Positions 11,064 through 35,251 of a stretch of 64,000 nucleotides of DNA are shown here, piece after piece; position 1 is the first letter of the stretch; every line of letters begins with the position of its first letter. Origin of the DNA: a candidate division FCPU426 bacterium (GTDB taxonomy: Bacteria > Oederibacteriota > Muellerivitia > Muellerivitales > Muellerivitaceae); assembly GCA_963719085.1 (NCBI GenBank), contig CAVRAL010000001.1, forward strand, positions 608,001-672,000, in the 5' to 3' direction. The position numbers were made by a program, and so were the translations under genes. The notes under the pieces were generated by a model. That model worked only from the letters and a program-made list of their open reading frames with translations, was not told where the DNA came from and made no database searches.

Positions 11064-11846
11064 TTGACGCGATTAATCGCCGTTGTGCCCGTTTTCAATG
11101 AGCAGAAGACATTGGAAAACGTTTTGCCGAGGATTCATCGACAAGTCGATCTTTTGGTTTGCGTGAATGACGGGTCAGATGATTCTTCCCTGAAAATGCT
11201 TCGGGAGTTCAGCCGAAAATACAAAAAAACCTTTATCGTCGATTTACCCGCGAATGTCGGAATGGCGGGCGCTTTAAAAAAAGGCTTTTTGTTCGTGCTT
11301 TACCTGCGGCGCCGAAAACTGGTCAATGACAACGATGTGGTTGTCACGATTGACGCCGATGGGCAGCATAAACCTGAATACATTCGTCGTTTGGCCCTTT
11401 ATATGAAACGCCAAAAGGTCGACGTGGTTTTGACCCGCCGAAATTTTTCGGTTTATCCCCGCTACAAAATCCTGGGCAACCAGTTTTTGACCTGGACGAA
11501 TTCCCGGCTGGCCGGGTTTCAGTACCAGGATGTGGAGTCGGGTCTAAGGCTTTTGCGGGTCCGGGTTTTGGAAAAGATATTGGCTTATTACACGGGCGTG
11601 AAATATTCCTGCGCTCAGGAGATCGCCCTCATCTGCGCGCGGACGGGATGCCGGATCGATAACGATTATCGGGTGGATATCGCTTATTACCGGGCGGGGA
11701 CCACGGTCTGGGACGGTTTTATTGTTTTGGCCTTGAGCTTTTATACTTATATTCGTTTGCTTTTTCAGATGAAAGAAGGCCGAAATGAGGATTTGGCTTT
11801 AATGAAAACTTCTTTTGAACGCTCCAAGAAAAACTGGCGGAAATAA
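11064..11846 (+). CDS. GT2 glycosyltransferase, polyprenol-phosphate-sugar synthase-like (DPM/DPG-synthase family)
   Basis: VVPVFNE, VNDGSDD, NVGMAGAL, TIDADGQH and DVESGLR motifs; C-terminal amphipathic segment. Confidence 0.85.
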   Translation: MTRLIAVVPVFNEQKTLENVLPRIHRQVDLLVCVNDGSDDSSLKMLREFSRKYKKTFIVDLPANVGMAGALKKGFLFVLYLRRRKLVNDNDVVVTIDADGQHKPEYIRRLALYMKRQKVDVVLTRRNFSVYPRYKILGNQFLTWTNSRLAGFQYQDVESGLRLLRVRVLEKILAYYTGVKYSCAQEIALICARTGCRIDNDYRVDIAYYRAGTTVWDGFIVLALSFYTYIRLLFQMKEGRNEDLALMKTSFERSKKNWRK

Positions 11847-11976
11847 AAGTCCGTTTTCAATAGGCCGGCGGGTCAAGGAGCCCTAAAAGTTTGAATTTTT
11901 TTGGAGAAAGATGGGATATACTATTTAACGCTTTTTTATTATTGATCCACTTTATTCTTCCCAAGGAATCGTTTTC

Positions 11977-14900
11977 GTGAAAACAAAGAGAAACCCGTTG
12001 GGGGCGGAAGGTTTTTGGCGCAAACCCGTTTTGGGCTTAATGTTGTCTCTTTTAGTGGGCGGCCTTTTTCGTTTCTATAACCCGAATTGGGACTATGAGC
12101 ATTCTTTTCATCCCGATGAACGCAATATTCTGGGGCAAACGGCCGGCATTCAAGCTTCCAATGGTTTTAGAGTCCAGTTTTTCGCCTACGGCCAGCTTCC
12201 CGTGTTTCTGTACCGGGCGACGGGTGAATTGTTATCGACGCCGCAAGTTTTAGCGCAGGCCTTCGGGGCTCATCAAGGTTTTGCCCAGAGTTTCTATTGG
12301 CTTATTATTTTGGGGTTTTCAAGCCTTGGGTTTTGGTTTTTTAAAAAGGAAAAATATAAGATAGCCGCTTTTGGTTTGTCGGTTCTCTTATTTTCCCTGG
12401 CTTTGTTGTTGAAGTTTTTTCCTGTTTTCGCTATTTGGTTTAACGCCTTACAGGATTGGCCGGCAAGATTGTCCTGTTTTGGCTGGGTCACGGTCACAGC
12501 CTTTGTGGTTTCCGCGTTACTTTCGAAAATACTCGAGGCGGATTGGCTCGGAATCCCTTTTTACGCGGCCAGCGGATCAATCTTTTTATTTGGAGTCCTT
12601 CCTCTCTTTTTGCCCGACGCTTGGGGGCACACTTTTGGCGCGACCGCTTTTACCCTTCTCATTTTGGTTTTGGGCGCTTGGCTGGCCTGGGTCACCCGGT
12701 GGGGCAGGGTTCTTTTGGCCTTTTTGGCCTTGTGGACGGTTTTCGCTTCGCTTCAGCACGGCGGCATCCAGTACGTGGATTACGGCAGTTTGATGATTAT
12801 TGGCCGTGTCTGGGCCGCTTTCTTTTCAACCGCAACGATCGCCGCGCTTTATGTCTTGGTCAACCGGCTTTACGGTAAGCCCTGGTTGGCGCTTCTGTCC
12901 GCCGCTTGTTTCGCCTTTTCAGTGGTTAGTATCCAAGTCGCCCATTACTGCATCACGGAATCTCTCATCACGCTGATGCTGGTGGTCGTCGCCACACTTG
13001 CCTGCGACATCCGCGAGAATGGTAGTTGGAAAAGTTATTTACTCACGGGATCCGCTTTTGGCATTTCGATGGCGGCGAAAACCAGCTCCCTTTATTACCT
13101 CTTAATTCTCCTACTGGGGCACATTCTTTTTCTCGCCGCGAAAAGCAAAAAAGATTGGTTGAGGGAAGACCGCAAAAACTCCGATAACAAAGACATTTTC
13201 ACGATTCTGGCGGCGGCGGTTCCGGTGGCCACGTTGGCGGCTTTTGTGGTCGTAGGATACAAGCTCAAGGGCGTCGCCCAAGATCTTTTCTACAACGGCG
13301 ACGGCTCGGTCATCCCCCCGGTTTGGCTGGCTTTTTTTGTTCTGGCTGTCGGGGTGGGTTTGGTTTTGTGTTTTTGGGGTTTTGTTGAATTCAAGGTCGT
13401 GCGCGGACAGGCCCAATACTGGATCAAGCTGGTGGCGGCCGGTGCCTTATCTTTTTTGATGTTTTGTTTGCTATCGCCTTGGTCGCTTCTTGATTTTTCC
13501 GGATTTCAAAATTCGATGAATTATGAATGGCATGTGGTTTCCATCGCGGACGCTTGCTACGTTTTGCAGTTTAAAGATACTTTCCGTTACTTGTTTCATC
13601 TTCAGAACCTAATGTCGGTTGAATTGTGGTGGCCTTTAGGCGTAACGGTGATTTTGGGATCGATTTGGGTGATTGGGCGTTTCGTGCTTTCTTTGTTTCG
13701 GGTGTCCGAGTCTTACGTTTTGCCGGTTCCGTTTTTAGTCCAAAAGGGGATTTCGCCTTTTGTCCCCGATTTGATGCTTTTGATTTGGTTTATTCCTTAT
13801 TTCGGTTTCATCGGGGCGTGGAACACAAAGTTCATTCGATATATGGTTCCCTTGATACCGTTTTTCTGCATTTTTGGCGCCCGCTTATTGACGGAGCTCT
13901 TTGACTGGTTGAAAAAGACTCCGGCCTTGGCCAAAGGTTTTAAAATCGCCCTGCTCTCAATCGTATTAGGCGGAAGCCTATTTTATTCCACGGCCTATAT
14001 GCATGTGTATCGATTCCCGCATCCCTGGCTTGACGCTTCCGTATGGATTTATAAGAACGTCCCGCCGGGCTCGCTGATCTTCAATGAGGCTTGGGGTGAC
14101 GGACTTCCCGTGGATATGACGCCGCAGCAAGACGCCCGGCTCGATCATTTTATGAGCCCGAGCCTTTATCGCTCCCAAGACATCACGCCCTATGAAATGT
14201 TCGGTTATCCCACGGACGACAGTCCGGTGAAGCGAAATTACTACGCCAACACGCTTCAGCAAGGCGATTACATCAGCATTTCGTCCAAAAAGCTTTGGTA
14301 TACGCTGACCAATTGCACGCCCGAATTTAAGCGGACTGGTTTTAATGCTTATCCTATTACGTCCCGCTATTACCGGCTCCTGTGGTCCGGTTTATTGGGC
14401 TACAAAATGGTGGGTGAATTCCATAACTTTCCCTCGCTTTTTGGGTGGGAGCATCCGGACGATATGGCGGAGGAATCTTTCTCGGTTTACGACCATCCCC
14501 GGGTTTATATTTTCAAAAAGTTTGAAACGGTTCCGCCGGATCAAATTTTGAAGTTGTTGGACTCGGATGATTACGTGAAGGGAATCGACCGGGATGTAAT
14601 GCGAACCATCACGCCTGAAAATGTGGACGCCTTTATTGCGGGTCGGCAGAAATATTTATCCGACAACGGTTTATTACAACGGCTGGCCGCGGCGCCCGCT
14701 TCGACGGGTTCTTTGGCGCCGACACCCGTGGCAAAAGATTCCACCCCTCTGCAGAGGATTCTGACGGCAACCGCCCAACCGCCCAAGCCCGCCGTGCAGA
14801 AGCGGCTGGAATCATTGACGCCGATCCCAACGCCCGAACCGACGATCGTGGTTCCTTTGGGAGCGCCGGGACTTCCGCCCGCGGGTACGCTTCAGGTTTT

Positions 14901-17900
14901 AAAAAATTTAACCGATCACCCAGTGACGGAAACCGATTTAGCCGCTTTTGAGCAAAAACAACAATCCGACGAGACGCTGGGTTATCAAATTCGGGCTTGG
15001 CTGAGTTGGTTGTTGCTGATTATTTTCCTGGGCCTATTGGCTTTTCCCTTATCGCTCAAGCTGATGGAATCCATGCCGGCGGCCGCTTACTCCTTGAGCA
15101 AAATTTTAGGGATGATTCTTTTTGCTTGGTTGGTTTGGATTTCCTCGTTCAGTTGGAAGGTGTTTAGCTTCCATTTCAAGATTTTTTATTTTTCGACTTT
15201 CAATTGTTGGGCTTGGATTTTGTTTTTAACGGTTGGCAGCGGCTTGGGTCTGTTTTTTCACGGCAAAGGCTTGAAATCGATCTGGAGCCGGTGGCATAAA
15301 GTTTGGTTGATTCAGGACGTTTTTTTCATCGGGGCTTTCGCCCTTTTCACCTTGGTCCGTGTTTTTAATCCTCATATCCATGATCCCAGCGGTTCTGGCT
15401 ATAACGGCGGTGGGGAAGCGGGAATGGATTTAGGCTTTTTATCCTCCGTGGTTCGCGGGGACAGTTTCCCTCCACAAAACATGTGGATGGCGGGACAGCC
15501 GATCGGATATCCCTATTATTTCGGCCACATCTTGATGGGAATTTTAACCAAGACCCTGGGATTGGCTCCTGCCGTGACCTACAACTTGGCGATCATCACC
15601 CTCTTCGCCCTTATTTTTTCGGCGGCTTTTAGTTTGGCTTATGCCTTATCGGAGAAACTGAGCGGCGGGATCATTGCCGGGCTTCTTTGCGCCACCGCGG
15701 GCAATTTGGACGGCGCCAAACAATATTTGCGCGACATCGGTGATTGCCTATCGCGTAATGATTGGACTTTGAGCGGACTTTGGAACTCCACCTTCGATTA
15801 TTGGGGTCCCTCCCGGGTGATTCCGCACTCGATCAACGAGTTTCCATACTTCAGCGTGCTTTTCGCCGATATGCACGCCCATACCTTGGCCATGCCTTTC
15901 GCCATGCTTTTAGTCGGACTGATCATGTCTTTTTATTTCTCGAATTCCGCTGGAACCAAAATCAGGTTTGAGTGGCCCTTGCTCTTGGGAATGGGTTTTC
16001 TCTTAGGCGGCCTGGCTTTCTTAAACACCTGGGACACCCTGACATGGAGCGCGCTGCTGGTGATCGCGTTGCTGTTAAAGATGCTCGCGTCTTTTCCCCG
16101 TAAGACTTTGGTGGATGGATTTAAGATAACGGCCACTGTTTTTGGGGCGGTTTTTGTTCTTCTGGCCGCTATTAACAAAATCCATCCCTCGGATAATCCC
16201 GCCGTGCTGGGCGGGACGACGACAAACCTTGAAATCGGTCTTCTGGCGGCGAGTTTGATCTCCTGCTCGATTTTGTACTCGCGGAAAATAACCCAGCCCT
16301 TGTCGATTCAATTTTTAATTTGCGGATTGTTTTTGGCCGGTGTGGGTCTTTCGGCGCGGGTGTTATGGGATCCTTTCTTTTCCACTTTTGTTCCGCAACA
16401 AAGCAAAATTTTGTGGGTGTTGCCCTATATCCGAACCGCCTGGGGAAATTATTTCACGATTTACGGCGCGTTTCTCTCGGTCATGGTTTGGGGATTCTTG
16501 CTGGTTTATGCCAAGCCGATAGGAAATTGGATCGGCAAAGGCAAATGGAGAATTTCTTGGGATTTTGAGGGTTTTCTTGGAACTTGCGAGGTGTTTTTTC
16601 AGAGATTTTTTGAACCGCAAAACGCGGTCCAGGGCATGTTTTTCCTGGGGCTGGCTTTGTGCCTTTTCATTATTGGGGGATCTTGGATCCATTGGGTGGA
16701 TCCCCAGAATCGAAGTGTTTGGGCTCTGCTGTTGGCGGCCGTGATTTTTGGATTGTTGATTTTGCCGCTTTATCTGAGAAAAATTCCAGCGTTTGGGGCC
16801 GCGGCTGGGGTTTTAATCCTGGTTTGGGTGGGCCTCATCGTCACCGGTGTTTTCCCTTTATTTCACGACAGCCCGCTTTTTCTGGGTTTGGGACTTTTTT
16901 CCGCCATTTGGATATTGGGTTTCTTGAATCTGGGCTTGGCGGTCCAAGCTCAAAAAGATAAAAAGCTCTCTTTCGCGTTTATCCTCATTGGTCTCTTTTT
17001 CTTGGTGACGGCCACGCTGGAAATTTTCGCCATCAGCGAGTACATGGGCGACGAAAGTATGCGCAATAACACGCTGTTCAAATTCGGCATTGACGCCTGG
17101 ATTTTGGCGTCCATCGCGACCGGCGCCTTGGCGCCAAGACTTTGGAACTTCGCGTCGGAGTTGTTGAAGTCCGTTCGAAAGGAAACCAAACTGTCCGAAA
17201 TGGTTTTGGCCGGATTTTCTTTTGTGGTGATCTCCTGGCTGCTTCATGTTCTTTTGGACGAGATTCTTTTTTCTCGTTCTTCGAATTTGATTTATTTCAT
17301 AAATTTATTTCTTGTGCTGAGCATTTTAGCTTGGATCTTCCTGGAAGATTGGTTGGCGCCCTGGATCGTCTATACCCTCGGGGGCGTTTTATTCCCGGTT
17401 TTGATACTGCCTTTATTGCCCAACGGAGACTATACGTCGCTTTTATACGTGGCTCAGCGTTTTCTGGGGAGCTTTGATACCGGCTTTTTATTCCCGGCGA
17501 GTTTGGTGATTTTTGTTTTGATTGTCCTTCATTTATTTTTGGAAAATAAGAAAAACAAGGGGATGCGAATCGCCGTGGCGAGCTGGAAATCCTTGGCGGT
17601 GGTTTTAAGCGTGATGGTTTTGATTTATCCCTTGGCCGCCACCTTCAGCAAATGCCGGCAAGCCTCGTTTGGCTCATCCGATTCGCCCACCCTCAATGGC
17701 TTGACCTATCTGAAAATGGAAAACCCGGGAGACGCGGCCGCCATTCGTTTCTTAAATGAAACGGTCCCGGGCCAGCCTTGTTTAATCGAGGCGGTCGGGC
17801 TTGGGTATAACACCTGGGGTTCCCGTTATTCCATTTTCACCGGAATCCCGGCTTTAATGGGATGGGACGGGCATGTGCGGGAATGGGTGGGGAGTTGGGA

Positions 17901-18153
17901 AGACGCTGAGATCAGCCAACGCTATTCCACGACCGAGACTATTTTTAATACCCATGACGTCCAGTTGGCGAAAAACCTGATGGATGCCTATGGGGTTCGG
18001 TTGATTGTGATTGGACCCCTGGAGCGGGGCGAGGAGGATCCGCGCAAGCGTTACGATCCGGATGGCTTGGCGAAATTCTCCACCTTTTTACCGCTGATTT
18101 ATAAAAATCCGAAGGTTGAAATTTACTATAATCCACCGGCGGAAAAGTCCTGA
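11977..18153 (+). CDS. 2058-aa polytopic membrane protein: N-terminal PMT/ArnT-like GT-C module, Pro/Thr linker, and C-terminal DUF2298 (Chlor_Arch_YYY-like) module
   Basis: N-module: FHPDERNI, FFAYGQLP, IQVAHY, KFIRYMVP, NEAWGDGLP, AEESFSVYDHP. C-module: GGEAGMDLGFL, FPPQNMWMAG, YPYYFGH, SRVIPHSINEFPYFS..FADMHAH, LNTWD, RNNTLFKF, TGIPALMGWDGH, YGVRLIVIGPLER. Dozens of hydrophobic helices. Confidence 0.85.
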   Translation: MKTKRNPLGAEGFWRKPVLGLMLSLLVGGLFRFYNPNWDYEHSFHPDERNILGQTAGIQASNGFRVQFFAYGQLPVFLYRATGELLSTPQVLAQAFGAHQGFAQSFYWLIILGFSSLGFWFFKKEKYKIAAFGLSVLLFSLALLLKFFPVFAIWFNALQDWPARLSCFGWVTVTAFVVSALLSKILEADWLGIPFYAASGSIFLFGVLPLFLPDAWGHTFGATAFTLLILVLGAWLAWVTRWGRVLLAFLALWTVFASLQHGGIQYVDYGSLMIIGRVWAAFFSTATIAALYVLVNRLYGKPWLALLSAACFAFSVVSIQVAHYCITESLITLMLVVVATLACDIRENGSWKSYLLTGSAFGISMAAKTSSLYYLLILLLGHILFLAAKSKKDWLREDRKNSDNKDIFTILAAAVPVATLAAFVVVGYKLKGVAQDLFYNGDGSVIPPVWLAFFVLAVGVGLVLCFWGFVEFKVVRGQAQYWIKLVAAGALSFLMFCLLSPWSLLDFSGFQNSMNYEWHVVSIADACYVLQFKDTFRYLFHLQNLMSVELWWPLGVTVILGSIWVIGRFVLSLFRVSESYVLPVPFLVQKGISPFVPDLMLLIWFIPYFGFIGAWNTKFIRYMVPLIPFFCIFGARLLTELFDWLKKTPALAKGFKIALLSIVLGGSLFYSTAYMHVYRFPHPWLDASVWIYKNVPPGSLIFNEAWGDGLPVDMTPQQDARLDHFMSPSLYRSQDITPYEMFGYPTDDSPVKRNYYANTLQQGDYISISSKKLWYTLTNCTPEFKRTGFNAYPITSRYYRLLWSGLLGYKMVGEFHNFPSLFGWEHPDDMAEESFSVYDHPRVYIFKKFETVPPDQILKLLDSDDYVKGIDRDVMRTITPENVDAFIAGRQKYLSDNGLLQRLAAAPASTGSLAPTPVAKDSTPLQRILTATAQPPKPAVQKRLESLTPIPTPEPTIVVPLGAPGLPPAGTLQVLKNLTDHPVTETDLAAFEQKQQSDETLGYQIRAWLSWLLLIIFLGLLAFPLSLKLMESMPAAAYSLSKILGMILFAWLVWISSFSWKVFSFHFKIFYFSTFNCWAWILFLTVGSGLGLFFHGKGLKSIWSRWHKVWLIQDVFFIGAFALFTLVRVFNPHIHDPSGSGYNGGGEAGMDLGFLSSVVRGDSFPPQNMWMAGQPIGYPYYFGHILMGILTKTLGLAPAVTYNLAIITLFALIFSAAFSLAYALSEKLSGGIIAGLLCATAGNLDGAKQYLRDIGDCLSRNDWTLSGLWNSTFDYWGPSRVIPHSINEFPYFSVLFADMHAHTLAMPFAMLLVGLIMSFYFSNSAGTKIRFEWPLLLGMGFLLGGLAFLNTWDTLTWSALLVIALLLKMLASFPRKTLVDGFKITATVFGAVFVLLAAINKIHPSDNPAVLGGTTTNLEIGLLAASLISCSILYSRKITQPLSIQFLICGLFLAGVGLSARVLWDPFFSTFVPQQSKILWVLPYIRTAWGNYFTIYGAFLSVMVWGFLLVYAKPIGNWIGKGKWRISWDFEGFLGTCEVFFQRFFEPQNAVQGMFFLGLALCLFIIGGSWIHWVDPQNRSVWALLLAAVIFGLLILPLYLRKIPAFGAAAGVLILVWVGLIVTGVFPLFHDSPLFLGLGLFSAIWILGFLNLGLAVQAQKDKKLSFAFILIGLFFLVTATLEIFAISEYMGDESMRNNTLFKFGIDAWILASIATGALAPRLWNFASELLKSVRKETKLSEMVLAGFSFVVISWLLHVLLDEILFSRSSNLIYFINLFLVLSILAWIFLEDWLAPWIVYTLGGVLFPVLILPLLPNGDYTSLLYVAQRFLGSFDTGFLFPASLVIFVLIVLHLFLENKKNKGMRIAVASWKSLAVVLSVMVLIYPLAATFSKCRQASFGSSDSPTLNGLTYLKMENPGDAAAIRFLNETVPGQPCLIEAVGLGYNTWGSRYSIFTGIPALMGWDGHVREWVGSWEDAEISQRYSTTETIFNTHDVQLAKNLMDAYGVRLIVIGPLERGEEDPRKRYDPDGLAKFSTFLPLIYKNPKVEIYYNPPAEKS

Positions 18154-21762: not shown

Positions 21763-21783
21763 GATCAAAAGCAAGGAGCCGTC

Positions 21784-25359: not shown

Positions 25360-25467
25360 TTTCGCTCTTTGGGTGTTTTTAAAACGCAGAAGGTTAAATA
25401 TTACCCCAAAAAAGTCCATTCTGTTGATATTATTCAACGGTAAACGATGGTTTGTTAAGGCGGATAA

Positions 25468-25604: not shown

Positions 25605-26660
25605 ATGGCTCGGGGTAATGCGAAGAAACAAAGTAAGAGAAATAATCGGAAAACAAGCGTGGATTCCGCGGCGGCCGTTCCGCCGTCCCAGTCCGCGCCG
25701 GGCGCCCAAGGCGGGGGCTTCTTAAAATGGTTTTTCATTTTAATCGTGGTATTGATCGCCATTGACGCCTTTAATTCTTTCCGGTCGGGCAAAGCGTTGT
25801 TTTCCTTCAAGGGATTTGACAAACATTTTGTGGTTCAACAAGTGCTTCACTTAACCGGAACCGATACGACGGGTAAACCGATGTCAGCTAATGCGGTAGT
25901 GGTCGTAAGCCCCACCGAGTTTGCCGTGGCGGACACGAGCGGTTGCAGGATTTTAATCTATGACTTCAACGGGAAACTGATTCGTCAATGGGGAAAGTAT
26001 GGAAGCAAGGGCCCCTATGAATTGCACGAGCCCTCCTCGATTGTGACCGACCATCAAGGACACATTTTCGTCATGGATACCTGGAATGGGGCCATCAAAG
26101 GCTATGATTTAAACGGGAAAAGCATCGGAACTATCGATTTGAACCATTTCCAGTCTTTTTACGGTCCTAGGAATATTACGTGGGGCGGCAAGTTTTTTCT
26201 GGTTTCGGATGTCGCCAACTATCGCGTCGTAAAGTTGTCCTTGGACGGACAAATTATCGGAGCTTTGAGCGGAAAAGGCACGGGGAAGGGCCAGTTCATG
26301 GGAATCTGCGGGACCATTTTGGACAGCCAAGGCAATTGGTATGTGGCGGATTCGAGCGCCAATAATCGCGTTGAAATATTTGACGATTCCGGGAAAGTCA
26401 TTCGAATCATTAAGACCCATGTGCCGCCAAACGTTTTGGCCATCGACGCTCAAAATAGGTTGTTTGTGGGCTGTTGGGGAGCCGCATCGCAGGTATTTAC
26501 CGTGGATGGCAAGCATTTGGGGGATTTGGAAGACGCGTCCCAACCCGGCGTTCCTCTTAACGGCATTCTTGGTATGGATACGGCCCCTAACGGGCTTCTG
26601 GTGACTTCCGGCGGCGATCAAGTGACCATTTATCGGGTTCAAGACGAAAAGAAAAATTAA
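25605..26660 (+). CDS. Membrane-anchored NHL-repeat protein (divergent)
   Basis: Basic N-tail plus TM helix; FAVADTSGCRILIYD, ELHEPSSIVTDHQGHIFVMDTWN and GQFMGICG..DSQGNWYVADSSANNRVEIFD. Confidence 0.85.
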   Translation: MARGNAKKQSKRNNRKTSVDSAAAVPPSQSAPGAQGGGFLKWFFILIVVLIAIDAFNSFRSGKALFSFKGFDKHFVVQQVLHLTGTDTTGKPMSANAVVVVSPTEFAVADTSGCRILIYDFNGKLIRQWGKYGSKGPYELHEPSSIVTDHQGHIFVMDTWNGAIKGYDLNGKSIGTIDLNHFQSFYGPRNITWGGKFFLVSDVANYRVVKLSLDGQIIGALSGKGTGKGQFMGICGTILDSQGNWYVADSSANNRVEIFDDSGKVIRIIKTHVPPNVLAIDAQNRLFVGCWGAASQVFTVDGKHLGDLEDASQPGVPLNGILGMDTAPNGLLVTSGGDQVTIYRVQDEKKN

Positions 26661-26704: not shown

Positions 26705-29395
26705 ATGCCGCCTTCCAAAAAAATAAAACGGGTTGGAACGGGTAAAGTGAAACGAGTCGGGCCGGAAAACACCCCGGCTCATTCGGTGCTCAAATCCGCC
26801 GCATGGGTGAAACCCGGGCTGGAGAGCCACTGGCTTCCCGGTTGGTCTTGGTTTCTTTTTTTTGTTTTGCTGGCGACCGGCTTGTTTTTTTTGATTCGGC
26901 ATCAATCGGAGACGGCCTCGATTTTTTTAATCCCGGCCGCGGTTCTCGGGGTGTCCTTTTATTTTCCTTTGCGCAGGCTTGACCACGCGCTGGGTCTAAT
27001 CGGCTTCGGTTGGTTGTTGGTTCTTTTCTCTTTGGGAAGTTGGACGAACTTTCGTTACGCTTTTTCCGCCATCGGTGATTACAATTTGCCATCGCCGGTC
27101 TTTCACTTGGCCTTAGGGTTGGGGCTATTGTTGGCCTACTGGCGTTACCTTCCGACTCAAACCGCCCCCGGATTAATCTCGAAAAACTGGGGCCTGATTT
27201 GGTTTTGGGTCATTTTCCTGGCCGCCGTTTTCCTGAGATTTCAAAGAATCCATGAGGAACCGGGTTGTTATTGGGACGACCCCGCGGTTTGTATTGTGGA
27301 TCCTCAAGGCATCTTGAATTTCCATGAGCATCCCATGCTGATGCCCTTGGGGCAGCGGGAGCCCTTTTTCTCTTATTTTCTCGCGGGATTGTGGTCGCTG
27401 GCGCCGACCGCCCACGCCATCTTTATCCAGCGTCTTGGCGGCGCGATCCTTGATTTGACCGCGGTCTGGCTCTTTTATTTTTTGGGTAAAGAAGCCGGGG
27501 GAGTGACCGTGGGTCTGGTCGCGGAAGCCTTGGCGGCATTCAGCAAACCGATGATCATTGAGGATTTAATCGGCATGACCGCGGTGACGGTACCATTGGC
27601 GGTGGCACTGGTGTTGTGGATCACCTTTCGATTGTTTAAAAAACCAGATTGGGGCCGTTTCGCGCAATGGGGGCTGGCGCTGGGATTCGCTCCCTACAAC
27701 TACACGCCGATCCGCACTTGGCTTCCTTTCATAGTGACGAGTGTTTTTGTTTGGATTTGGTTTTATAAACGAAAAGACTCAAAACACAATCAAGGGCGTT
27801 CGGCGGACCAAATTTACGGGTGGGGAATTGTCTTTTTCTGGAATTTGTTATTCTTGAAAGTGAACAATTTTATACCCGTCAACTCGTTTTTGTTTAACTT
27901 GCTCAATTCTTGGTGGTTCTGGATTTCAGTCCTTTTGATTTATTTCATCCTCAGCGGTCTTCTTATTTTCCGGGGAGGGGGAGAAAAAGACGGTTATTTG
28001 AAGATCGCGCCCCGTTTCTTTTTAGGGGTTTTGTTGGCGGTGGCCATCATTTATCCTTTGGCTTCCGACCCTGAGATCGCCGTCCACCCCTCGGGCCTTT
28101 CCATTTTTCATGACCAGCAAACACGGACTTTTCATTACCAAGACACGGTTCCGTTCCTTCTCTTGCACAAGACCTGGGTCAGCATTGAAACCATGTTCTA
28201 CAGCGGACAGGATCGAGGCGATTTGAACCTGCCTTGGGACGCCTTTTTTGAATTTCACTTTGTTCCGCTGTTTGTTTTAGGATTTGTGGCTTTTTTATCA
28301 AGACCTTCATGGTTGAGCGGGTTTCTCTTGGCGGGAGGGTTTGTGGGCATCTCCACCCATGTGTTGTCCATCGATCCGCACAGCGCGAAACTGGTGGCCG
28401 CGATCGCCCCCCTCTCCGTTTTGGCGGGGTTGGGATTCCAACAGTTTTATTCGGCCTTGAAATCGTTAAAAACCAAAAATTACGCGCCTGTCTTTGGGAT
28501 ATTTTGTTTGGTTTATTTTGGCTGGGCGATTTGGGGAACCTACGACCGGGTCTGGACCCATTATTTCCGAGAGGAAAGAATCGATCACATTATTGGCGAT
28601 AAGGTCATCGAGCTGGCCCCCCGGAACCGAATTTATATGGCGGTTTATCCCGATTTTGGTTCCCCGCAAACTTTGGCGCTTCTGGACCAGGGTTTGGATC
28701 TTTATATTCTCGGCAAAGAAAACCCGATTTATTGCGGTGTAGGCCAGGCTCGGAAGGACGTGGTGGTTTTAATGCACATCGGGGATAAAAACACGCAAAA
28801 CTTGGTTCAGGAGCAATTTAAAAATGTTTCTTGGACCGTGGAATCCAGCAATCAAGAGGGCCATCCCGAGGTGTTGAGAATCGCCACGATTCCGGCCGCC
28901 GAAATCGGCGAAAAACCCGGAAAGCTTTTTTATTTTCAACCCGAACAGGGATTGGGGTGGTTTCGAGATTATTTCGCGGGTCGTTATGTGTTGGGGGCGG
29001 GCTTGATTGATCGAGAGGAGTACGTGGATTCCATTTACGCCCCGATTCCCGGTGACATGGGGGGAAGGATGGTACGAATCAGCGGCAATCTTAACCTGGC
29101 CGCGGATGAGACGATTTTGTTTAAAACCAAAGCCGTCAATGATGTCATTTTGAAGGTGGACGGGAAGGACGTTATCAATCTAAGGCCTTTTAACCGAACC
29201 TTGCAGGCGTCAAAAGAAATGACATTGGCCCAAGGGCCCCATTTCATTGAGTATGTTACCTATCTTCAATTTAGCAATGAGATCCCCGAGGTCGCGATGA
29301 CCGTCAATGGCCAGGATCAATTATTGGGCGAGAGTAAGAATCTGACGCCCGCGGCGTTGTCGGCGCTGCACAGTTCTTTCAATCTGGGCCATTGA
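26705..29395 (+). CDS. GT-C membrane glycosyltransferase (GT39/ArnT/PMT_2-like) with C-terminal PA14-like domain
   Basis: FLAAVFLRF..EPGCYWDD, REPFFSY, YFLGKE.GG..VGLVA, WGLALG..PYNYTP.R. The C-terminal beta-rich ISGNLNL..ILKVDGKDVI..MTLAQGPHFIEY resembles PA14. Confidence 0.75.
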   Translation: MPPSKKIKRVGTGKVKRVGPENTPAHSVLKSAAWVKPGLESHWLPGWSWFLFFVLLATGLFFLIRHQSETASIFLIPAAVLGVSFYFPLRRLDHALGLIGFGWLLVLFSLGSWTNFRYAFSAIGDYNLPSPVFHLALGLGLLLAYWRYLPTQTAPGLISKNWGLIWFWVIFLAAVFLRFQRIHEEPGCYWDDPAVCIVDPQGILNFHEHPMLMPLGQREPFFSYFLAGLWSLAPTAHAIFIQRLGGAILDLTAVWLFYFLGKEAGGVTVGLVAEALAAFSKPMIIEDLIGMTAVTVPLAVALVLWITFRLFKKPDWGRFAQWGLALGFAPYNYTPIRTWLPFIVTSVFVWIWFYKRKDSKHNQGRSADQIYGWGIVFFWNLLFLKVNNFIPVNSFLFNLLNSWWFWISVLLIYFILSGLLIFRGGGEKDGYLKIAPRFFLGVLLAVAIIYPLASDPEIAVHPSGLSIFHDQQTRTFHYQDTVPFLLLHKTWVSIETMFYSGQDRGDLNLPWDAFFEFHFVPLFVLGFVAFLSRPSWLSGFLLAGGFVGISTHVLSIDPHSAKLVAAIAPLSVLAGLGFQQFYSALKSLKTKNYAPVFGIFCLVYFGWAIWGTYDRVWTHYFREERIDHIIGDKVIELAPRNRIYMAVYPDFGSPQTLALLDQGLDLYILGKENPIYCGVGQARKDVVVLMHIGDKNTQNLVQEQFKNVSWTVESSNQEGHPEVLRIATIPAAEIGEKPGKLFYFQPEQGLGWFRDYFAGRYVLGAGLIDREEYVDSIYAPIPGDMGGRMVRISGNLNLAADETILFKTKAVNDVILKVDGKDVINLRPFNRTLQASKEMTLAQGPHFIEYVTYLQFSNEIPEVAMTVNGQDQLLGESKNLTPAALSALHSSFNLGH

Positions 29396-29448
29396 GGGCG
29401 AGGGCCGCATTAACGTTTCGAACAACAGAAATGGGTTCAAGGTGGAAA

Positions 29449-32097
29449 ATGCCAAATCAAAAAAAGAGTAAAAAAACGCCCATTAAAAATAAGCCGTTGA
29501 GATTGAAGGCAAATTCGGGGTTGAGTCCGGGGGACAGGCAAGGCGATCGCTCAAATTTTATCGCTCGGATTTTAGAGGCGGGGTTTCTCGACCGGTTCAT
29601 TTATGGAGTTCTTTTATTTATTTTTTTTCTTTCGGGGTTTTTATCGTGTTGGAAAGGGCTCTATCCAACCGGGATCGGTTTTATCGCCGGCGGATTGACC
29701 TTGGCCTTCGCCAAGTCGATTTTTAAAAATCTTCGAGCGGATATTCAATTCGGTTTGGCGGCTTTGGGCGCTCTTCTCATCGCCGAATCTTTTTCCGCGG
29801 TTCACGATTTCGCCGAAGTCATGCCGCAGGGGCTTCTTTTTAATCTGCCGAATTGGCATGGCTTTCTATTCATTGTTGGCTTTGTTTTAATTCTCATGGG
29901 TTCGCGTTTTTCATCCCGCCCGCCGTTTCAAGAACCGGAAGTGAAGTCTTGGCAAGTGGGATTAATACTTGGTTGCGTCGCGGCGGTGGCCGCTTGGATC
30001 GCTTTGAGCCATTTAAACGACCCTCCGGGTTTTTATTGGGATGACAACGCCACGGTCATTAAGGACATCCGAACCGTCAAGGAATTGCATTTATACGGCA
30101 TCATCATGCCGGCCAGTTTTCGAGAGCCGGCGATCACCTATTGGACGGCCATGCTTTGGTATCTTTTTCCGGACGCCACAGGCATTCAAATGCAAAGAAT
30201 CGGTCCAGTTTTCATGTTTTTGGCCTCGCTGGGGATGATGTACCTGCTGGGAAAGGAAGTCGCCGGGCGGAAGGTGGGTTTGATTTTCGCGGCGATCGGG
30301 GCCGTCAACAAGTGGTTGTTGACTGAAACAGTTTGGGGTTCGGGACTTATTTTGACGATGTTTTCCGTTTCGTGGTCTTTGCTGATGCTTTATCGAATTT
30401 TTAAAAACCCAAGCTGGTTTAATTTCATCTTGTGGGGATTGGCCCTCACGTTTGGGACCTATACCTATGGGGCTTACCGGCCCTATGACTTTTTAATGGT
30501 CTTGGTGGTTGGAATTTGGATATTGGCTGCGAGGAAAAAATGGTCCACTAATTGGGCAGGATGGTTTTTGGCTTTTTGGGTTTCCGGTTTTTGGCTCTCC
30601 TTCTTTTTGGAAAAAAATCATTTGATCCTCAATCGGGCCGGATTCGACCTCTTTTCTCAAAACTGGTTTTTGTGGGTTTATTTCGTCCTTTTCTTTTTGG
30701 CGCTTGTGCTGGCGAGTGTTGGTTTTTTCGAGAAGAAGGGGCAAAACGGGATATTTTTGAAATTAACGGCTGGCCTGTCCCTGGCCGCCATTCTGGTTTA
30801 CCCGTTGGTGACCCATCCCGCTTATGGGATGCGGGTCGCCGAGTTAAACGCGTTTCAAGCTGGGAATGATTTAGGCGCAAAGTTGGCCACTTTTTTAGTT
30901 AAATTCGGGAAAACATTTCGAGAGCTTTTTATGGGCGCCGGTTTCTGGGGAGATTCAGCGTTTGACTTTCAAGGCGCGTGGGTGGTTGTCGTCGGGGTGG
31001 CCGTCTTTTTGGCGAAACCGAGCTGGAAAACCTTTCTTTTGTTTGCGGCTATCGTGGTGGGACTGGTCCCACACGTCTTAACCCATGATGAGTACAACGG
31101 GAGAGCCCTGGCTTCGGTCACGCCTTTTCTTCTTTTGGGCGCTTTAGGAATCGAGGAGATCCGGGTTTGGGGCGGGAATCTTTGGGGCCGTAAAATGTGG
31201 AACCGTTTTTTTACCGCTTTATTTTGCCTTTTTTTGGGTTGGCAGGCCTGGGACAGCTATGAAATTATTTTTCAAAAATGGTTTTATATGACGGGGCCGG
31301 AAGCTTTGGTAAGCCGGGAGGTGGTGGAAGATTCGCCCGCCAACCGGGTGTATTTGACGGTTTTGCCGAATTGCTCCTCTCCCGAATGCCAGGGAGTCTT
31401 GGACGAAGGACACCCCCTCTATGTTTATCGCGACTCCAATCCTATTTATGTGAAGCCGGGTGAGAAGCCAAAAGACGTGGTGCTTATTTTCTTTCCGGGA
31501 GACCCAAAACTGGAAGACCGTTTGAAAAAGGAATTTCCCCTGGCCCAATGGACCAGTATCAACTTCAACACATTCCATTATCCTACGGTCCAACCGGGCG
31601 ATACGGCCACCCGTTTTTACCGAGTGTTTATACCCGCAGATCAAATTTCAACTAACCCGGCTCGGTCGATTTATTTTGCCCCGGGACTGGAAAATGGCTG
31701 GACAAGGGACTTTTACATCGGCTCCTATGGAATGGGGCATGGAGCCATCGCGGCCGAGGATATGGTCAAATCCTTACGACAGCCTTTTCCGGTGAACGAT
31801 ATGCATTCGGCCGGTTTTACGGGAGTTTTTCAAGCGCCGGTGGACGGGGATTATCAATTCTCAATGCGGGATCAAAATTTCGTTCTGCTCTGGATTGACG
31901 GCCATAAGGCGCTCGATGCCCGAGGGGCCAAACCCCAAGGGTTGACGGCGAGTAAAACAATTCATTTAACCAAGGGCGCCCATTCGATATATTTGGTTTC
32001 ATATTTTTTGATGAATCAATTGATTCCCAATATCGCGGTTCGGGTTCCCGGCGAGAATCAAGATCAAGAATTAGATGATTTTACGGCTTCCAAATAA
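29449..32097 (+). CDS. GT-C membrane glycosyltransferase (GT39/ArnT/PMT_2-like) with C-terminal PA14-like domain; paralogue of the upstream gene
   Basis: PPGFYWDD, REPAITY, YLLGKEVAG, WGLALTFGTYTYGAYR; PA14-like FTGVFQAPVDGDYQF..LWIDG..IHLTKGAHSI. ATG at 29449 follows AAGGTGG. Confidence 0.78.
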   Translation: MPNQKKSKKTPIKNKPLRLKANSGLSPGDRQGDRSNFIARILEAGFLDRFIYGVLLFIFFLSGFLSCWKGLYPTGIGFIAGGLTLAFAKSIFKNLRADIQFGLAALGALLIAESFSAVHDFAEVMPQGLLFNLPNWHGFLFIVGFVLILMGSRFSSRPPFQEPEVKSWQVGLILGCVAAVAAWIALSHLNDPPGFYWDDNATVIKDIRTVKELHLYGIIMPASFREPAITYWTAMLWYLFPDATGIQMQRIGPVFMFLASLGMMYLLGKEVAGRKVGLIFAAIGAVNKWLLTETVWGSGLILTMFSVSWSLLMLYRIFKNPSWFNFILWGLALTFGTYTYGAYRPYDFLMVLVVGIWILAARKKWSTNWAGWFLAFWVSGFWLSFFLEKNHLILNRAGFDLFSQNWFLWVYFVLFFLALVLASVGFFEKKGQNGIFLKLTAGLSLAAILVYPLVTHPAYGMRVAELNAFQAGNDLGAKLATFLVKFGKTFRELFMGAGFWGDSAFDFQGAWVVVVGVAVFLAKPSWKTFLLFAAIVVGLVPHVLTHDEYNGRALASVTPFLLLGALGIEEIRVWGGNLWGRKMWNRFFTALFCLFLGWQAWDSYEIIFQKWFYMTGPEALVSREVVEDSPANRVYLTVLPNCSSPECQGVLDEGHPLYVYRDSNPIYVKPGEKPKDVVLIFFPGDPKLEDRLKKEFPLAQWTSINFNTFHYPTVQPGDTATRFYRVFIPADQISTNPARSIYFAPGLENGWTRDFYIGSYGMGHGAIAAEDMVKSLRQPFPVNDMHSAGFTGVFQAPVDGDYQFSMRDQNFVLLWIDGHKALDARGAKPQGLTASKTIHLTKGAHSIYLVSYFLMNQLIPNIAVRVPGENQDQELDDFTASK

Positions 32098-32115: not shown

Positions 32116-32820
32116 ATGCGGCCGAAAAAGAAATTAACGCTTTCGATTATCGTTCCGGTCTTTAACGAGGAAAAAACCGTGGCCTTGATTTTGAAGACCG
32201 TCAACCGCCTGAAACTTCCGGGCGTCCAAAAAGATATTGTCGTGGTTAACGATGGTTCCACGGATGGAACGGCGATGGTTTTGAAAAAAATACGAATCCC
32301 GGGTGTCCGGGTGTTTCATCACGATAAAAACAAAGGGAAAGGCGCGGCCATTCGAACCGCGATCCCCCATACCAAGGGCGACTTTGTCATTATTCAAGAC
32401 GCCGATTTGGAATATGACCCTAACGATTATCAGAAACTCTTGGAGCCGCTCATCCATGGGCAGGCGGACGTGGTCTATGGGTCGCGGTTTTTAGGGGTTC
32501 ACCGCGCCTTTATGTTTTGGCATTCTTTGGGAAACAAGTTTTTAACTTTTGTCACCAATCTCTTGTACGACACCATTTTAACGGACATGGAGACTTGCTA
32601 TAAGGTTTTCCGCGGCGAGGTGATCCGCGGTTTGACTTTAAGGTCGAATCGGTTTGAAATTGAGCCGGAGATGACCGCTAAAATTTTGAAAAAGAAGTAC
32701 AAGCTGTTTGAGGTGCCCATTTCCTATTCAGGACGCAGTTTTGAGGAAGGGAAAAAGATCACTTGGAAAGACGGGTTCGGAGCCCTGGTCGCGTTGGCCA
32801 GGTACCGGTTTTTCAACTGA
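32116..32820 (+). CDS. GT2 polyprenol-phosphate-sugar synthase-like glycosyltransferase
   Basis: SIIVPVFNEE, VNDGSTDGT, NKGKGAA, IQDADLEYDP, VVYGSRF, TDMETCYK, FEIEPEMTAK and EGKKITWKDG. Confidence 0.92.
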   Translation: MRPKKKLTLSIIVPVFNEEKTVALILKTVNRLKLPGVQKDIVVVNDGSTDGTAMVLKKIRIPGVRVFHHDKNKGKGAAIRTAIPHTKGDFVIIQDADLEYDPNDYQKLLEPLIHGQADVVYGSRFLGVHRAFMFWHSLGNKFLTFVTNLLYDTILTDMETCYKVFRGEVIRGLTLRSNRFEIEPEMTAKILKKKYKLFEVPISYSGRSFEEGKKITWKDGFGALVALARYRFFN

Positions 32821-32880: not shown

Positions 32881-32890
32881 GTTTATGGGG

Positions 32891-35251
32891 TTAATTGGCC
32901 GCCGGCTGTAAATGATGATGCCGGGTGGGCGACGGGGTTGGCGCGGGTAAAGGATAGTCCGTGGGGATGTCCGCCCGGTCCGTTTGGGTAAACCCATATT
33001 TCTGGGCCAAGTCGGGTTGTACCCACATCCGCATGTTGTAACTTCCCATGTCCGACCAAACTTCCCGGTAAAGAATCCAGTTTTTCAAATCGTTCCAATC
33101 CACCATATCGGTTCGAGGCGAGTTGATCGGGATAAAGTTTCGGAACAACCAATCAAAAAAGAGGTCCGAATTCATGTCGCTGGACGGGAACCCCTTTTTA
33201 AACCACGAGGGAACCCACCAAACCCGAAGTTTGTATTTTCGGTTCACGTATCCGGCTTGGCTGAGGATGGGATAAACCTGGGCGTCGGATTCGGTCGCCG
33301 TCAAAATGATCGGATTGTCGGCCGCCGTGATCACCGGGGGATGTCCGCGCTTTTGATAATCCCTTAAAAACCAGGCGAAGGGCCAGGAGCATTTATCCTC
33401 AATGGTCAAACCAATGTCTGTTCCGCCGGTTTCTCCATAGGATATTTTATCGATCCAATCAACGACTTCCTTCGTGTCCGGGCCGGACTGAACATAGACC
33501 AGGGGTTCCACAGGATTGGATTCATGGTAAAAGCTCAAAAGAACGGCCGAATGGATCGAATAGGTTAATAAAAGCCCGAAGAGCATGAAGGCGGCGATGC
33601 GGGTCGCGCGCCAGATTTGAAGCGCCGGTTTGGAATCCCATAAGTCCCCGATGAGGTAGGCGGTCAATAGCAGGGAAGGGAGAAGCGGATGAACAATGAG
33701 CCAGGGCATTTTTTCCCCGGCCCAGGAAAAGAGTGCCAGAGATCCCACGTACCAATAGCCTAAAAATAAGGGGACGTTCTTCCGGTTAAAGAGACTGTAA
33801 TAAACGAGAGCCACGCCCGAGAAGAAGAAAGAAACCATCTCATTGGCCGGTAATTGAACGAGATAATAGTACCAAGGTTCGTCGCCGCGATGGACGTCAT
33901 GCTGTCCCCACCAATATTCCAAACCGCCGAAGGCGCCGTTGTAAATGTCATAGACCAGGGTGTGGATCCGGGAAGAGAAATCGGTTTGGTTCGCGCCGAC
34001 CGTGAAAAAAGTCGTGTAAAGCAGGGTGAAGAGACCCAGTGAAATCGTGAGGGCTCCGGTTAAGGTGGGGGAGACGTTTTTCACCCAAAGCCATCCAAAG
34101 CGGAAAAGCAGCCCGAGATAGGCGACGAATAAAAGCAGGGTGAAGGGCCAAAAGTTTGAGATGGATTGAAAAAAGGATATTTTCAATGTGAGGATGGCGA
34201 TGATCCACCAGGCGCCGAAACCCAAAAGCTCAAACTGAACGCTCTCAAATCCTAGTTCACTGATGGCGGTCCAAAGGCCGCTTCCGCCGCCCGCGGCGAA
34301 ATGATTTTTCCAACCGACGTAAAGCCGGTAAAGCGTGTAAAGGAAAGCGGAGCCCACCAAGGCCAAAAAGACAGGCAGGCGCGTGGGATCCCCTTTGGGA
34401 ATAATCAACTGGGTCAAGATTCCGATTGTGGTAAGTCCGCCCGCCACCAAAACATCAAACCAAGGCAGGAGCCTTATAAACAAGTAAGTTCCCACCACGG
34501 CCATGGTTAGAAAAATGGATTCTTTTGTGCAGAAGGCGATCGTGAAGCCGATGGACGCGATCCAGAAATCCACGGGCTGTCTCGATTTGAGGTATCGGAA
34601 AAGAAAGACGATCATGGTGAAGGTTGCCCCGGCCATATAGGCGTCTTCCCGGCAGAAACGATCGAAGTACATAAAGCTCGGAGAAGCCACGATCAAAAGG
34701 GTGGCTAGGAAAGCCCCGGTCCTTCCTATAAATGGCCCCATCAACATGGCTAAAATCACGGTGAGGACGCCAAAAGTCGCGGCCAAATACCGGGAAGTGG
34801 CGTCTGAAACCCCGAAGAAATAATACATGAGCGCGTTACCGTGAAATTGGAAAGGCCCGTGCATCATGGGGTTGTATTCGTAGTCGCCGTCCTTAAATAG
34901 TTGGAAAGAATAAAAAGCGTGCATGCTTTCGTCGTGATGATGGGGTTTGTTGCCCAAATGATCGAAACGTGTAAACAAGGTTAATAAAAGCAGGGCGATG
35001 TAACCGATTTGCAGTAAAGACAGTTTGGAGGGATTTAAGGGTGTCGCCGCGATTTCCGGGGCGGGGGACGGGACGCTCTTTTTTTCTTTTGGATCAATCA
35101 TGGCGGGTTTGGGTATTTTATTAACCGCGGTGTTTGGCTTGGGGTTCTTTTCCGCGGCCATTTCTTGGAGTTTGGCGCCGCATTGCTCGCAAAAACTATT
35201 GGAGGCCGGATTTTTAGCGTTGCACTTTTGGCATATTTTAATCTCGGACAT
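32891..35251 (-). CDS. TIGR03663-family (Agl23-like, PMT-related) membrane protein with N-terminal zinc ribbon
   Basis: LFTRFDHLG.KPHHHDESMHA (DE), YNPMMHGPFQF (HGP), YFDRFCREDAY, TKES, GLEYWWGQHDVHRGDEPWYYY, AGEKMPWL, LVYVQ and WPFAWFLRDY. ATG at 35251 follows AGGAG; CQKC..FCEQCG ribbon. Confidence 0.9.
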   Translation of the reverse strand: MSEIKICQKCNAKNPASNSFCEQCGAKLQEMAAEKNPKPNTAVNKIPKPAMIDPKEKKSVPSPAPEIAATPLNPSKLSLLQIGYIALLLLTLFTRFDHLGNKPHHHDESMHAFYSFQLFKDGDYEYNPMMHGPFQFHGNALMYYFFGVSDATSRYLAATFGVLTVILAMLMGPFIGRTGAFLATLLIVASPSFMYFDRFCREDAYMAGATFTMIVFLFRYLKSRQPVDFWIASIGFTIAFCTKESIFLTMAVVGTYLFIRLLPWFDVLVAGGLTTIGILTQLIIPKGDPTRLPVFLALVGSAFLYTLYRLYVGWKNHFAAGGGSGLWTAISELGFESVQFELLGFGAWWIIAILTLKISFFQSISNFWPFTLLLFVAYLGLLFRFGWLWVKNVSPTLTGALTISLGLFTLLYTTFFTVGANQTDFSSRIHTLVYDIYNGAFGGLEYWWGQHDVHRGDEPWYYYLVQLPANEMVSFFFSGVALVYYSLFNRKNVPLFLGYWYVGSLALFSWAGEKMPWLIVHPLLPSLLLTAYLIGDLWDSKPALQIWRATRIAAFMLFGLLLTYSIHSAVLLSFYHESNPVEPLVYVQSGPDTKEVVDWIDKISYGETGGTDIGLTIEDKCSWPFAWFLRDYQKRGHPPVITAADNPIILTATESDAQVYPILSQAGYVNRKYKLRVWWVPSWFKKGFPSSDMNSDLFFDWLFRNFIPINSPRTDMVDWNDLKNWILYREVWSDMGSYNMRMWVQPDLAQKYGFTQTDRADIPTDYPLPAPTPSPTRHHHLQPAAN

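Follow-up and report, generated by a model that had tools for sequence, protein, structure and literature searches.

The 13 neighbouring genes between positions 11064 and 35251 of the window, the 64-kb stretch of candidate division FCPU426 contig CAVRAL010000001.1 analysed here, very probably form part of an uncharacterised pathway of some kind in which GT-C glycosyltransferases assemble glycans at the membrane's outer face. GT-C enzymes use lipid-phosphate sugars on that face. As the job of the pathway, O-glycosylation of exported Thr/Ser-rich proteins is given a little under an even chance. The fullest form of the proposal, which we put forward tentatively, is that the YYY (DUF2298) and TIGR03663 (Agl23) families and a GT2, together with a UPF0104 flippase and the PRK07233 flavoprotein, constitute one pathway common to archaea, Chloroflexota and the host phylum, in which O-glycans grow by one sugar at a time at the outer face. 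YYY would then be a new GT-C family, Agl23 a transferase and the set the missing haloarchaeal O-glycosylation machinery, here coating about 70 Thr-Pro stalk proteins, a mucin-like secretome of type IX secretion system (T9SS) type. The system itself is real, coherent and widespread, an uncharacterised variant of the known lipid-phosphate-sugar/GT-C design, and the locus is one more instance of it, not a unique one. New here are the coupling of three families in numbers, a remote donor operon, a split between core and cassette, and a partly negative test of the acceptor.

The 835-aa YYY protein (18192..20699, plus strand) is a core gene and scored 515.5 bits against TIGR03662 (Chlor_Arch_YYY), and the YYY module of the neighbouring 2058-aa fusion (11977..18153, plus strand), also core, scored 375.8 bits, the curated cut-off being 300.25; against PF10060 (DUF2298) the scores were 354 and 259 bits (Pfam cut-off 27.8). 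A model of the 835-aa protein was predicted on a 100-sequence alignment, with a predicted local distance difference test (pLDDT) of 92 and a predicted template modelling score (pTM) of 0.94. Its Foldseek ranks 1–22 were all GT-C enzymes, led by DPY19 (E 5e-7) and followed by AftA, AglB and STT3. VIA-align ranks 1–23 were GT-C enzymes, their domains or a glycosylphosphatidylinositol (GPI) transamidase subunit of GT-C fold, with Z-scores of 13.6 for AglB (root-mean-square deviation (rmsd) 6.9, 462 aligned), 13.6 for ALG12, 13.4 for STT3B, 13.1 for ArnT and 12.7 for Pmt4. Residues 684–834 matched the C-domain of AglB (3vu0) with Z 11.4 and rmsd 2.5 over 117 aligned residues. On the predicted model, YYY is a GT-C fold with a C-terminal domain like that of oligosaccharyltransferase (OST). 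The YYY sequence profile had no match below E 1 among solved structures, and an Atlas search for YYY outside DUF2298 clusters returned DUF6541 clusters alone, at 0.88–0.89 and under the 0.9 mark.

Nine residues (E123, D144, E286, D296, H298, H300, R604, H742 and E743) were invariant in 100/100 YYY sequences, and W746 of the C-domain was invariant along with H742 and E743. The YYYxG motif reads Y154-Y155-Y156-F157-G158 in the 835-aa protein, its Y and G being invariant in the 100 sequences, and DxHxH lies at residues 296–300; the module of the fusion has YPYYFG in place of YYYFG and carries E1147 within GGEAGMD. E123 is located in the first large outer loop, just after the fourth helix, the loop position in which GT-C enzymes carry their catalytic acid, and on the model it would be the equivalent residue. 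For both YYY and TIGR03663, the acidic loops were assigned to their side of the membrane on the basis of the number of helices and of the charged loops. A COG title names the YYY family as a predicted membrane glycosyltransferase. A CxxC..CxxC zinc ribbon, predicted to lie on the cytoplasmic side, was observed at window positions 19593–19649 (YYY residues 468–486), and Pfam zinc-ribbon matches were found in a few YYY relatives.

The YYY model shares a GT-C membrane core and a C-terminal globular domain with STT3/AglB/PglB and DPY19. A role for YYY as a non-canonical enzyme that N- or C-glycosylates proteins, in the manner of OST or DPY19, would fit the OST-like C-domain, the top Foldseek rank of DPY19, the invariant H742, E743 and W746 and the lack of an STT3 (PF02516) match in the host genome (hereafter G000) at E 0.001, at which four archaeal controls matched. 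We nevertheless consider this reading of YYY highly improbable: no WWD of the WWDYG motif is present in either YYY protein, and the same C-domain fold recurs in ALG12, AftA and ArnT matches running to residue 835. YYY further differs from these enzymes in having no STT3 Pfam match, in its identity to them of 9–13 %, in three extra N-terminal helices and in its YYYxG, DxHxH and GWxxHE motifs.

The core TIGR03663 protein (786 aa, 32891..35251, minus strand) is encoded divergently from a PorV-family gene, starts at 35251 with an ATG preceded by AGGAG, and scored 240.8 bits against a curated cut-off of 126.25. It also matched PF02366 (PMT) at 30.1 bits (cut-off 22.7) and PMT_2 above its cut-off; the PF02366 profile covers ArnT-like enzymes too, so the acceptor of the TIGR03663 protein is not fixed by the PMT match. 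The predicted model (pLDDT 89, pTM 0.86) gave VIA-align Z-scores of 28.8 for ArnT (rmsd 3.7, 437 aligned), 27.5 for STT3B, 27.5 for ALG12, 27.1 for Pmt2 and 27.0 for AglB, the first row that was not GT-C standing at Z 7.5, and Foldseek was concordant. A GT-C fold is therefore clear from the predicted model. The pair D107-E108 (HHDE), located in the first large outer loop, was invariant in 100/100 TIGR03663 sequences, as were H131, R198, R201 and E244, and the DE pair was present in 10/10 archaeal TIGR03663 proteins inspected. A profile search with TIGR03663 matched propellers first, the alignment having contained NHL fusions, and reached ArnT at E 4e-7. The protein ends in a Pro/Thr-rich tail. 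An N-terminal CxxC..CxxC zinc ribbon (residues 7–28, window 35168–35233) was predicted on the cytoplasmic side, and in one relative (L173, G009:C49) the gene is tandemly duplicated as two 801-aa copies.

NCBIfam labels this family 'flippase activity-associated protein Agl23'. In the Haloarcula hispanica Agl22/Agl23 pathway, Agl23 is described as a flippase, and it is possible in principle that TIGR03663 flips lipid-phosphate sugars and that only the other modules transfer sugar, a reading that concerns one gene and overlaps with the others weighed here. H. hispanica Agl23 rescues a yeast rft1 deletion and, in liposomes, the purified protein moves M5GN2-PP-Dol across the membrane (PMC11182771), a published activity that the original prediction did not take into account; neither GtrA in the genome nor a flippase in the locus was found. 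We regard this reading as unlikely, given the GT-C fold (Z 28.8), the invariant DE pair and the other invariant residues, and also the separate flippase-like gene found beside YYY in methanogen-type loci, in at least 10 of the best 80 YYY loci surveyed and in G000. No MOP or GtrA flippases were among the fold matches listed for the model, a negative limited to the families in that listing. Judging from family members, Agl23 itself would carry the DE motif, and flippase and transferase activity may both reside in one TIGR03663 protein. The two systems are alike in belonging to the TIGR03663 family by curated hidden Markov model (HMM) and in using lipid-phosphate-hexose donors outside the cytoplasm; they differ in that the protein here combines a GT-C fold and invariant DE with NHL partners, a zinc ribbon, two nearby YYY modules and a host with lipopolysaccharide (LPS) and an outer membrane (PMC11182771). 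The predicted GT-C fold gives a structural reason for re-examining the flippase label of Agl23.

The remaining GT-C modules were assigned by HMM or homology, predicted models having been used for the 835-aa YYY and TIGR03663 proteins. The N-terminal module of the fusion scored 33.5 bits against PMT_2 (cut-off 26.1) and carries an HPDE motif (D48-E49), with [HQ]PDE found in 36/38 fusion proteins; a Pro/Thr-rich linker at about residues 900–965 joins this module to the YYY module. Together with TIGR03662 twice and TIGR03663 once by curated cut-off, and two PMT_2-PA14-type proteins by family evidence, this bears out the six GT-C-type modules of the original prediction, and for YYY and TIGR03663 the GT-C fold and outer-face acidic residues on which it relied were recovered in the predicted models and invariant residues.

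The expected co-occurrence of YYY and TIGR03663 was tight in both the archaeal and the Chloroflexota samples. Both families were present in 132 of 201 Chloroflexota genomes and neither in 63, with YYY alone in 4 and TIGR03663 alone in 2 (195/201 concordant). The 101 archaeal genomes, a sample centred on a Methanosarcinales-labelled genome and including genomes with the two genes far apart, comprised 40 with both, 1 with YYY only, 0 with TIGR03663 only and 60 with neither (100/101 concordant). Within the 31 genomes of the host phylum, YYY was found in 26, TIGR03663 in 27 and both in 26. These counts come from related genomes with no species tree behind the samples, so that kin are not independent. 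In three archaeal loci of Methanomicrobiales-like type (L151, L154, L159) the set stands amid housekeeping genes: TIGR03663 comes right after the genes for EF-1alpha and S10, and YYY lies ahead of ribosomal L7Ae.

A third family follows the same distribution. PRK07233 was present in 40/41 YYY-positive and 2/60 YYY-negative archaea (by protein query), in 135/136 YYY-positive and 14/65 YYY-negative Chloroflexota, and in 27/31 genomes of the host phylum, being missing from the four near-complete YYY-negative ones. Among 14 control genomes, all three families were found only in Haloferax volcanii and Methanosarcina acetivorans. PRK07233, an equivalog that has gone unstudied, follows YYY in three phyla, and its reaction would be key to understanding the pathway; its similarity is to flavoproteins that act on isoprenoids (HpnE, E 3e-27; phytoene desaturase 5MOG, E 9e-16). 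Methanogen-type loci have the order TIGR03663, PRK07233 flavoprotein, GT2, UPF0104/LPG_synthase_TM and YYY, with the GT2 and flippase-like domain at times fused. In the host, the same trio of a TIGR00374 flippase-like gene, PRK07233 and a GT2 forms an operon at G000:C1:1205191-1208418 (L168:1192-4419), about 560 kb from the locus, with PRK07233 scoring 503 bits against a cut-off of 252. The coupling of PRK07233 and this remote trio indicate that the pathway extends beyond the locus. The locus had been described as self-contained, a view that does not hold given this operon and a genome with 19 PMT_2, 5 LPG_synthase_TM, 4 Wzx-like and 7 Wzy_C whole-genome profile matches. No dedicated flippase (GtrA or MATE) was found among the 13 locus genes, the TIGR00374 flippase-like gene being in the remote operon; GtrA had no match in G000.

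The following order of events is proposed. Soluble GT2s would charge polyprenol phosphate with monosaccharides at the inner face, a step for which homology is strong. The UPF0104/PplT flippase-like protein of the remote operon may then move the donors across the membrane, as gene order and co-occurrence suggest, with PRK07233 probably modifying the sugar or the lipid carrier and a fourth GT2 encoded alongside. In the periplasm, four core GT-C modules (TIGR03663, the PMT-like module of the fusion and the two YYY modules) would add sugars serially by means of their outer-loop acids, fold and residues being predicted and activity putative, and NHL1 and NHL2 may act as accessory outer domains of TIGR03663. 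Finally, a swappable cassette of GT2c, two PMT-PA14 enzymes, NHL3 and the methyltransferases may add lineage-specific decorations. The acceptor recognition by NHL/PA14 domains and the sugar methylation named in the original prediction would be candidate functions.

The split between core and cassette emerged from the gene neighbourhoods of 13 relatives belonging to the host's family or order. Nine of these keep fusion-YYY-NHL1-NHL2-GT2b together with TIGR03663 on a single contig and in unchanged order; of the remainder, three are interrupted by contig ends and G012 has TIGR03663 far away. In four relatives (G005, G009, G010, G016) GT2b is followed directly by TIGR03663, so that MT1, MT2, NHL3, the PMT-PA14 pair and GT2c are inserts that can be dispensed with; different subsets of the cassette genes occur in other relatives. 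GT2a is missing from this place in G005. ORF (open reading frame) calling dropped genes beneath long antisense frames in G012, G027 and G030, where the gene order is incomplete. The 13 genes had been treated as one unit; six of them form a variable cassette, and the two minus-strand genes (24370-25437 and 32891-35251) mean that the 13 are not one operon. A DUF6941 gene of about 125 aa lies between GT2a and the fusion in most family relatives (L013:3373-3753; G003, G005, G010, G012, G013, G016), at a place where the window has 130 bases. In distant members of the phylum (L018:6603-7475, L027:15591-16877, L032:999-2246) a decaprenyl-phosphate phosphoribosyltransferase (283 bits, above cut-off) precedes the fusion and a Wzx-like gene follows the NHL genes, a possible sign that these lineages use a pentose donor.

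Named genomes contained at least 599 YYY loci, of which the best 80, mostly from Chloroflexota, were surveyed. Since 38 of these 80 are shorter than 15 kb the counts are lower bounds: TIGR03663 in at least 34, the fusion N-module in at least 27, NHL in at least 20, methyltransferases in at least 14 and GT2 in at least 4. At least 15 ORFs in these 80 loci fuse TIGR03663 to NHL, and NHL1 was the best local match to the fused propeller in 12/15 TIGR03663-NHL fusions (33–44 % identity). A complex prediction for TIGR03663 (76–752) with NHL1 (12–334) scored 0.00 against a mark of 0.32, without folded controls, and counts neither for nor against an interaction. The uncharacterised YYY-TIGR03663 clusters of Chloroflexota and Halobacteriota share families, fusion and order with the locus, which differs in its separate NHL genes, remote donor operon and inserted PMT-PA14 cassette. 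In a quick single-gene tree of 62 of the 106 single-module YYY proteins, with Chloroflexota thinned to 26, YYY of one genome of the same phylum was sister to a record titled Ca. Goldiibacteriota. The YYY of a Methylomirabilis-labelled locus (L066) is very close to a Goldiibacteriota-labelled record and has identical gene order; it may represent transfer or mis-binning and was not counted as an independent diderm lineage.

With respect to the acceptor, Thr-Pro tracts are plausible, unproven candidates. In G000, 74/2620 called ORFs have at least eight Thr-Pro motifs, and 69/74 of these have a hydrophobic N-terminus (background 921/2149). The tracts total 17,189 residues, of which 42 % are Thr, with 28 N-sequons. 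The TPTxTPTxT pattern and PRK07233 are both absent from the four near-complete host-phylum genomes without YYY. The tract proteins make up 1.9 % of the called proteome (for example C4:81959-101118, C4:998042-1054023 and C1:482638-493190), and many of them have a T9SS-type C-terminal tail; the T9SS sorting tail TIGR04183 matched at 18 places in G000 and there were 12 PorV-like BLAST matches.

Several observations weigh against O-glycosylation of these proteins. The co-absence in the host phylum concerns two families and perhaps one loss. Among Chloroflexota, the Thr-Pro pattern was found in 47/65 YYY-negative genomes (up to 224 matches) against 131/136 YYY-positive ones, and in size-matched genomes (65 vs 51, 1.8–4 Mb) tract density was 4.4 vs 3.3 per Mb (p 0.72); with densities alike, Thr-Pro load was rejected as a strict marker of the system. 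PGF-CTERM was likewise rejected as a marker, as it occurs in 100/101 archaeal genomes and the system in only 41, which also shows the YYY/TIGR03663 pair to be patchy within one archaeal phylum. G000 contains many other candidate enzymes for Thr-Pro tracts, including those behind the 19 PMT_2 and 7 Wzy_C matches. Protein-acting GT-Cs are not told apart from glycan- or lipid-acting ones by the folds, with AglB, ALG12, ArnT and AftA scoring alike, and the YYY Z-score of about 13 is not high for a helical protein, even if GT-C enzymes fill all the top rows. From the literature, the S-layer protein of a Methylomirabilis species is described as without glycans (PMC8671808), and the reported translocation of a lipid-linked oligosaccharide by purified Agl23 (PMC11182771) points the same way.

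The same enzymes could instead act on a non-protein acceptor and make or lengthen a glycolipid or an envelope polymer at the outer face, on the pattern of the phosphatidylinositol mannoside/lipomannan/lipoarabinomannan (PIM/LM/LAM) or GPI pathways, for which we would allow well under an even chance. The folds also match ALG12, ALG9, AftA, AftB and ArnT, serial GT-Cs are typical of lipid-anchored glycan extension, and the distribution of the system does not track Thr-rich proteins. The partners also suggest lipids: UPF0104/PplT has been proposed to translocate phospholipids (bioRxiv 2022.03.11.483950) and PRK07233 is like isoprenoid-acting flavoproteins. On the other side, the hosts (archaea, Chloroflexota and an LPS diderm) differ in lipids and envelopes, which would make a common lipid acceptor hard to name, and Agl23 is tied in print to glycoprotein glycans (PMC11182771).

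LPS comes into question through the host. The 3.04-Mb host genome (99 % complete) encodes LpxC and two Omp85 genes, identifying an LPS diderm, so the outer membrane that had been foreseen is confirmed. The diderm setting is less special than had been supposed: YYY occurs in 26/31 genomes of the host phylum and the order fusion-YYY-TIGR03663-NHL is the Chloroflexota arrangement. Uniqueness to one diderm was rejected, other lineages of the host phylum carrying the system. Decoration of LPS or O-antigen in the periplasm, of the Gtr, ArnT or GT136 type, would agree with LpxC, with the adjacent LptF/G and LptD, with ArnT as the top structural match of TIGR03663 and with the resemblance of the phosphoribosyltransferase and Wzx-like gene of distant phylum members to the Citrobacter three-component system (PMC11127046). 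This is plausible for the variable cassette and very unlikely for the cluster as a whole, since archaea and Chloroflexota, neither of them known to make LPS, share the conserved core, and G000 gave no match to a UbiA query.

Three-component periplasmic glycosylation (GtrA/GtrB/Gtr; Citrobacter GT136) resembles the present system in combining donor synthase, flippase and GT-C, and some relatives of the host have the same UbiA-type donor synthase and Wzx-like gene as Citrobacter. In those systems one GT-C adds an O-antigen side chain, whereas several coupled GT-Cs are found here, conserved in organisms without LPS, and GtrA was not found in G000 (PMC11127046). YfhO-family GT-C systems share a GT2 lipid-phosphate-sugar synthase, outer-face GT-Cs and the proposed kind of acceptor; the system here differs in its DUF2298, TIGR03663 and PMT_2-PA14 families, its four to six modules, its coupled flavoprotein and an acceptor that is only putative.

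Related published work covers streptococcal O-glycosylation (PMC11092751), an O-linked Glc-1,4-Gal of H. hispanica (PMC9943897), UPF0104 as a flippase-like AglD domain (PMC5898192) and a table of gene neighbours of PMT2/PA14 genes that includes DUF2298 (PMC8756737). A 2018 review gives the components of archaeal O-glycosylation as still unidentified (PMC6098224). A description of the gene set or of a function for DUF2298, a large family, was not found in the main texts searched; most subscription papers and all supplements, where proteomics or annotation tables might name the families, were outside that scope. The archaeal version of the set is a candidate for the archaeal protein O-glycosylation pathway, and three orphan families that are coupled almost obligately, each of them encoded by both H. 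volcanii and M. acetivorans, make the archaeal question testable in genetically tractable hosts.

The rest of the inventory agreed well with the original prediction, all 13 ORFs being present. The three GT2s had Pfam GT2 matches (E 2.5e-20, 6e-32 and 7e-34), and the prediction that they resemble polyprenol-phosphate-sugar synthases was upheld by homology to dolichol-phosphate-mannose synthase (DPMS), GtrB and ArnC. GT2a (260 aa, 11064..11846, plus strand, Pfam GT2 E 2.5e-20) is a soluble protein of this type and a usual but not constant core member; its best solved relatives are GtrB sll0501 and ArnC (E 3e-7 to 8e-6). The core gene GT2b (22815..23546, plus strand), DPMS-like and without a transmembrane (TM) domain, is closest to Pyrococcus furiosus DPMS 5MLZ (E 2.5e-34 over residues 8–242). 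GT2c (32116..32820, plus strand) belongs to the cassette and is AglJ/DPMS-like, matching 5MLZ at E 4e-17 and TIGR04182 at E 8e-38 (below cut-off); GT2a and GT2c are nearest to DPMS, GtrB and ArnC.

Each of the three predicted NHL propellers has one N-terminal hydrophobic segment behind a basic N-terminus, in keeping with membrane anchoring. NHL1 (20731..21762, plus strand, Pfam NHL E 1.6e-45) and NHL2 (21784..22770, plus strand, E 1.5e-37, conserved order) are core, and the divergent NHL3 (25605..26660, plus strand) is part of the cassette. The two methyltransferases are indeed of class I S-adenosylmethionine (SAM) type without a TM segment, and both belong to the cassette: MT1 (23543..24367, plus strand, Methyltransf_11 E 6e-18) is patchy in relatives, and MT2 (24370..25437, minus strand) has an N-terminal Cys cluster and the lowest G+C (0.44) of the genes measured.

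The two cassette genes predicted as GT39-like with PA14 are tandem paralogues of PMT_2 type with a YWDD motif (189–192 in the first), about 30 % identical (E 3e-91). PA14 was detected in the second (29392..32097, plus strand, 25.5 bits), and in the first (26705..29395, plus strand) a C-terminal PA14 is probable from an Atlas lead only. The first has no Pfam match of its own; PMT_2 matches 9/13 members of its alignment, and its Atlas neighbours are PMT_2/PA14 clusters at 0.99. Comparison of the PMT-PA14 and TIGR03663 alignments with hhalign was weak (probability 9.9 %, E 0.003). A paralogous set of PMT-PA14, GT2 and NHL3-like genes is present at G000:C4:164603-170381. As had been noted, Wzx, Wzy and ligase genes were not found among the 13 genes in the Pfam scan.

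Cluster G+C was 0.44–0.53 and third-position G+C 0.53–0.63, close to the flanking genes. A promoter and terminator scan of 10900–30000 was uninformative: 15 sites resembled promoters, where 18.2 were expected, and 49 resembled terminators, where 39.9 were expected. Upstream of the cluster, the window contains a radical-SAM gene, a complete rRNA operon at 2361–7768 (16S, tRNA-Ile, tRNA-Ala, 23S, 5S) with its two tRNAs, and a 2-oxoacid:ferredoxin oxidoreductase pair; downstream are PorV-family, LptF/G, LptD, UvrA, complex I and haem genes. By Pfam and NCBIfam, two PorV-family genes, LptF/G and LptD adjoin the cluster. One LptF/G permease gene lies beside an LptD-like gene at 38824–42113, with UvrA and the second PorV-family gene behind, an order kept in the family. 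Between PorV and LptF/G, a 682-aa ORF (36721–38769) without a Pfam or NCBIfam match is conserved at 34–62 % in the same place in the family.

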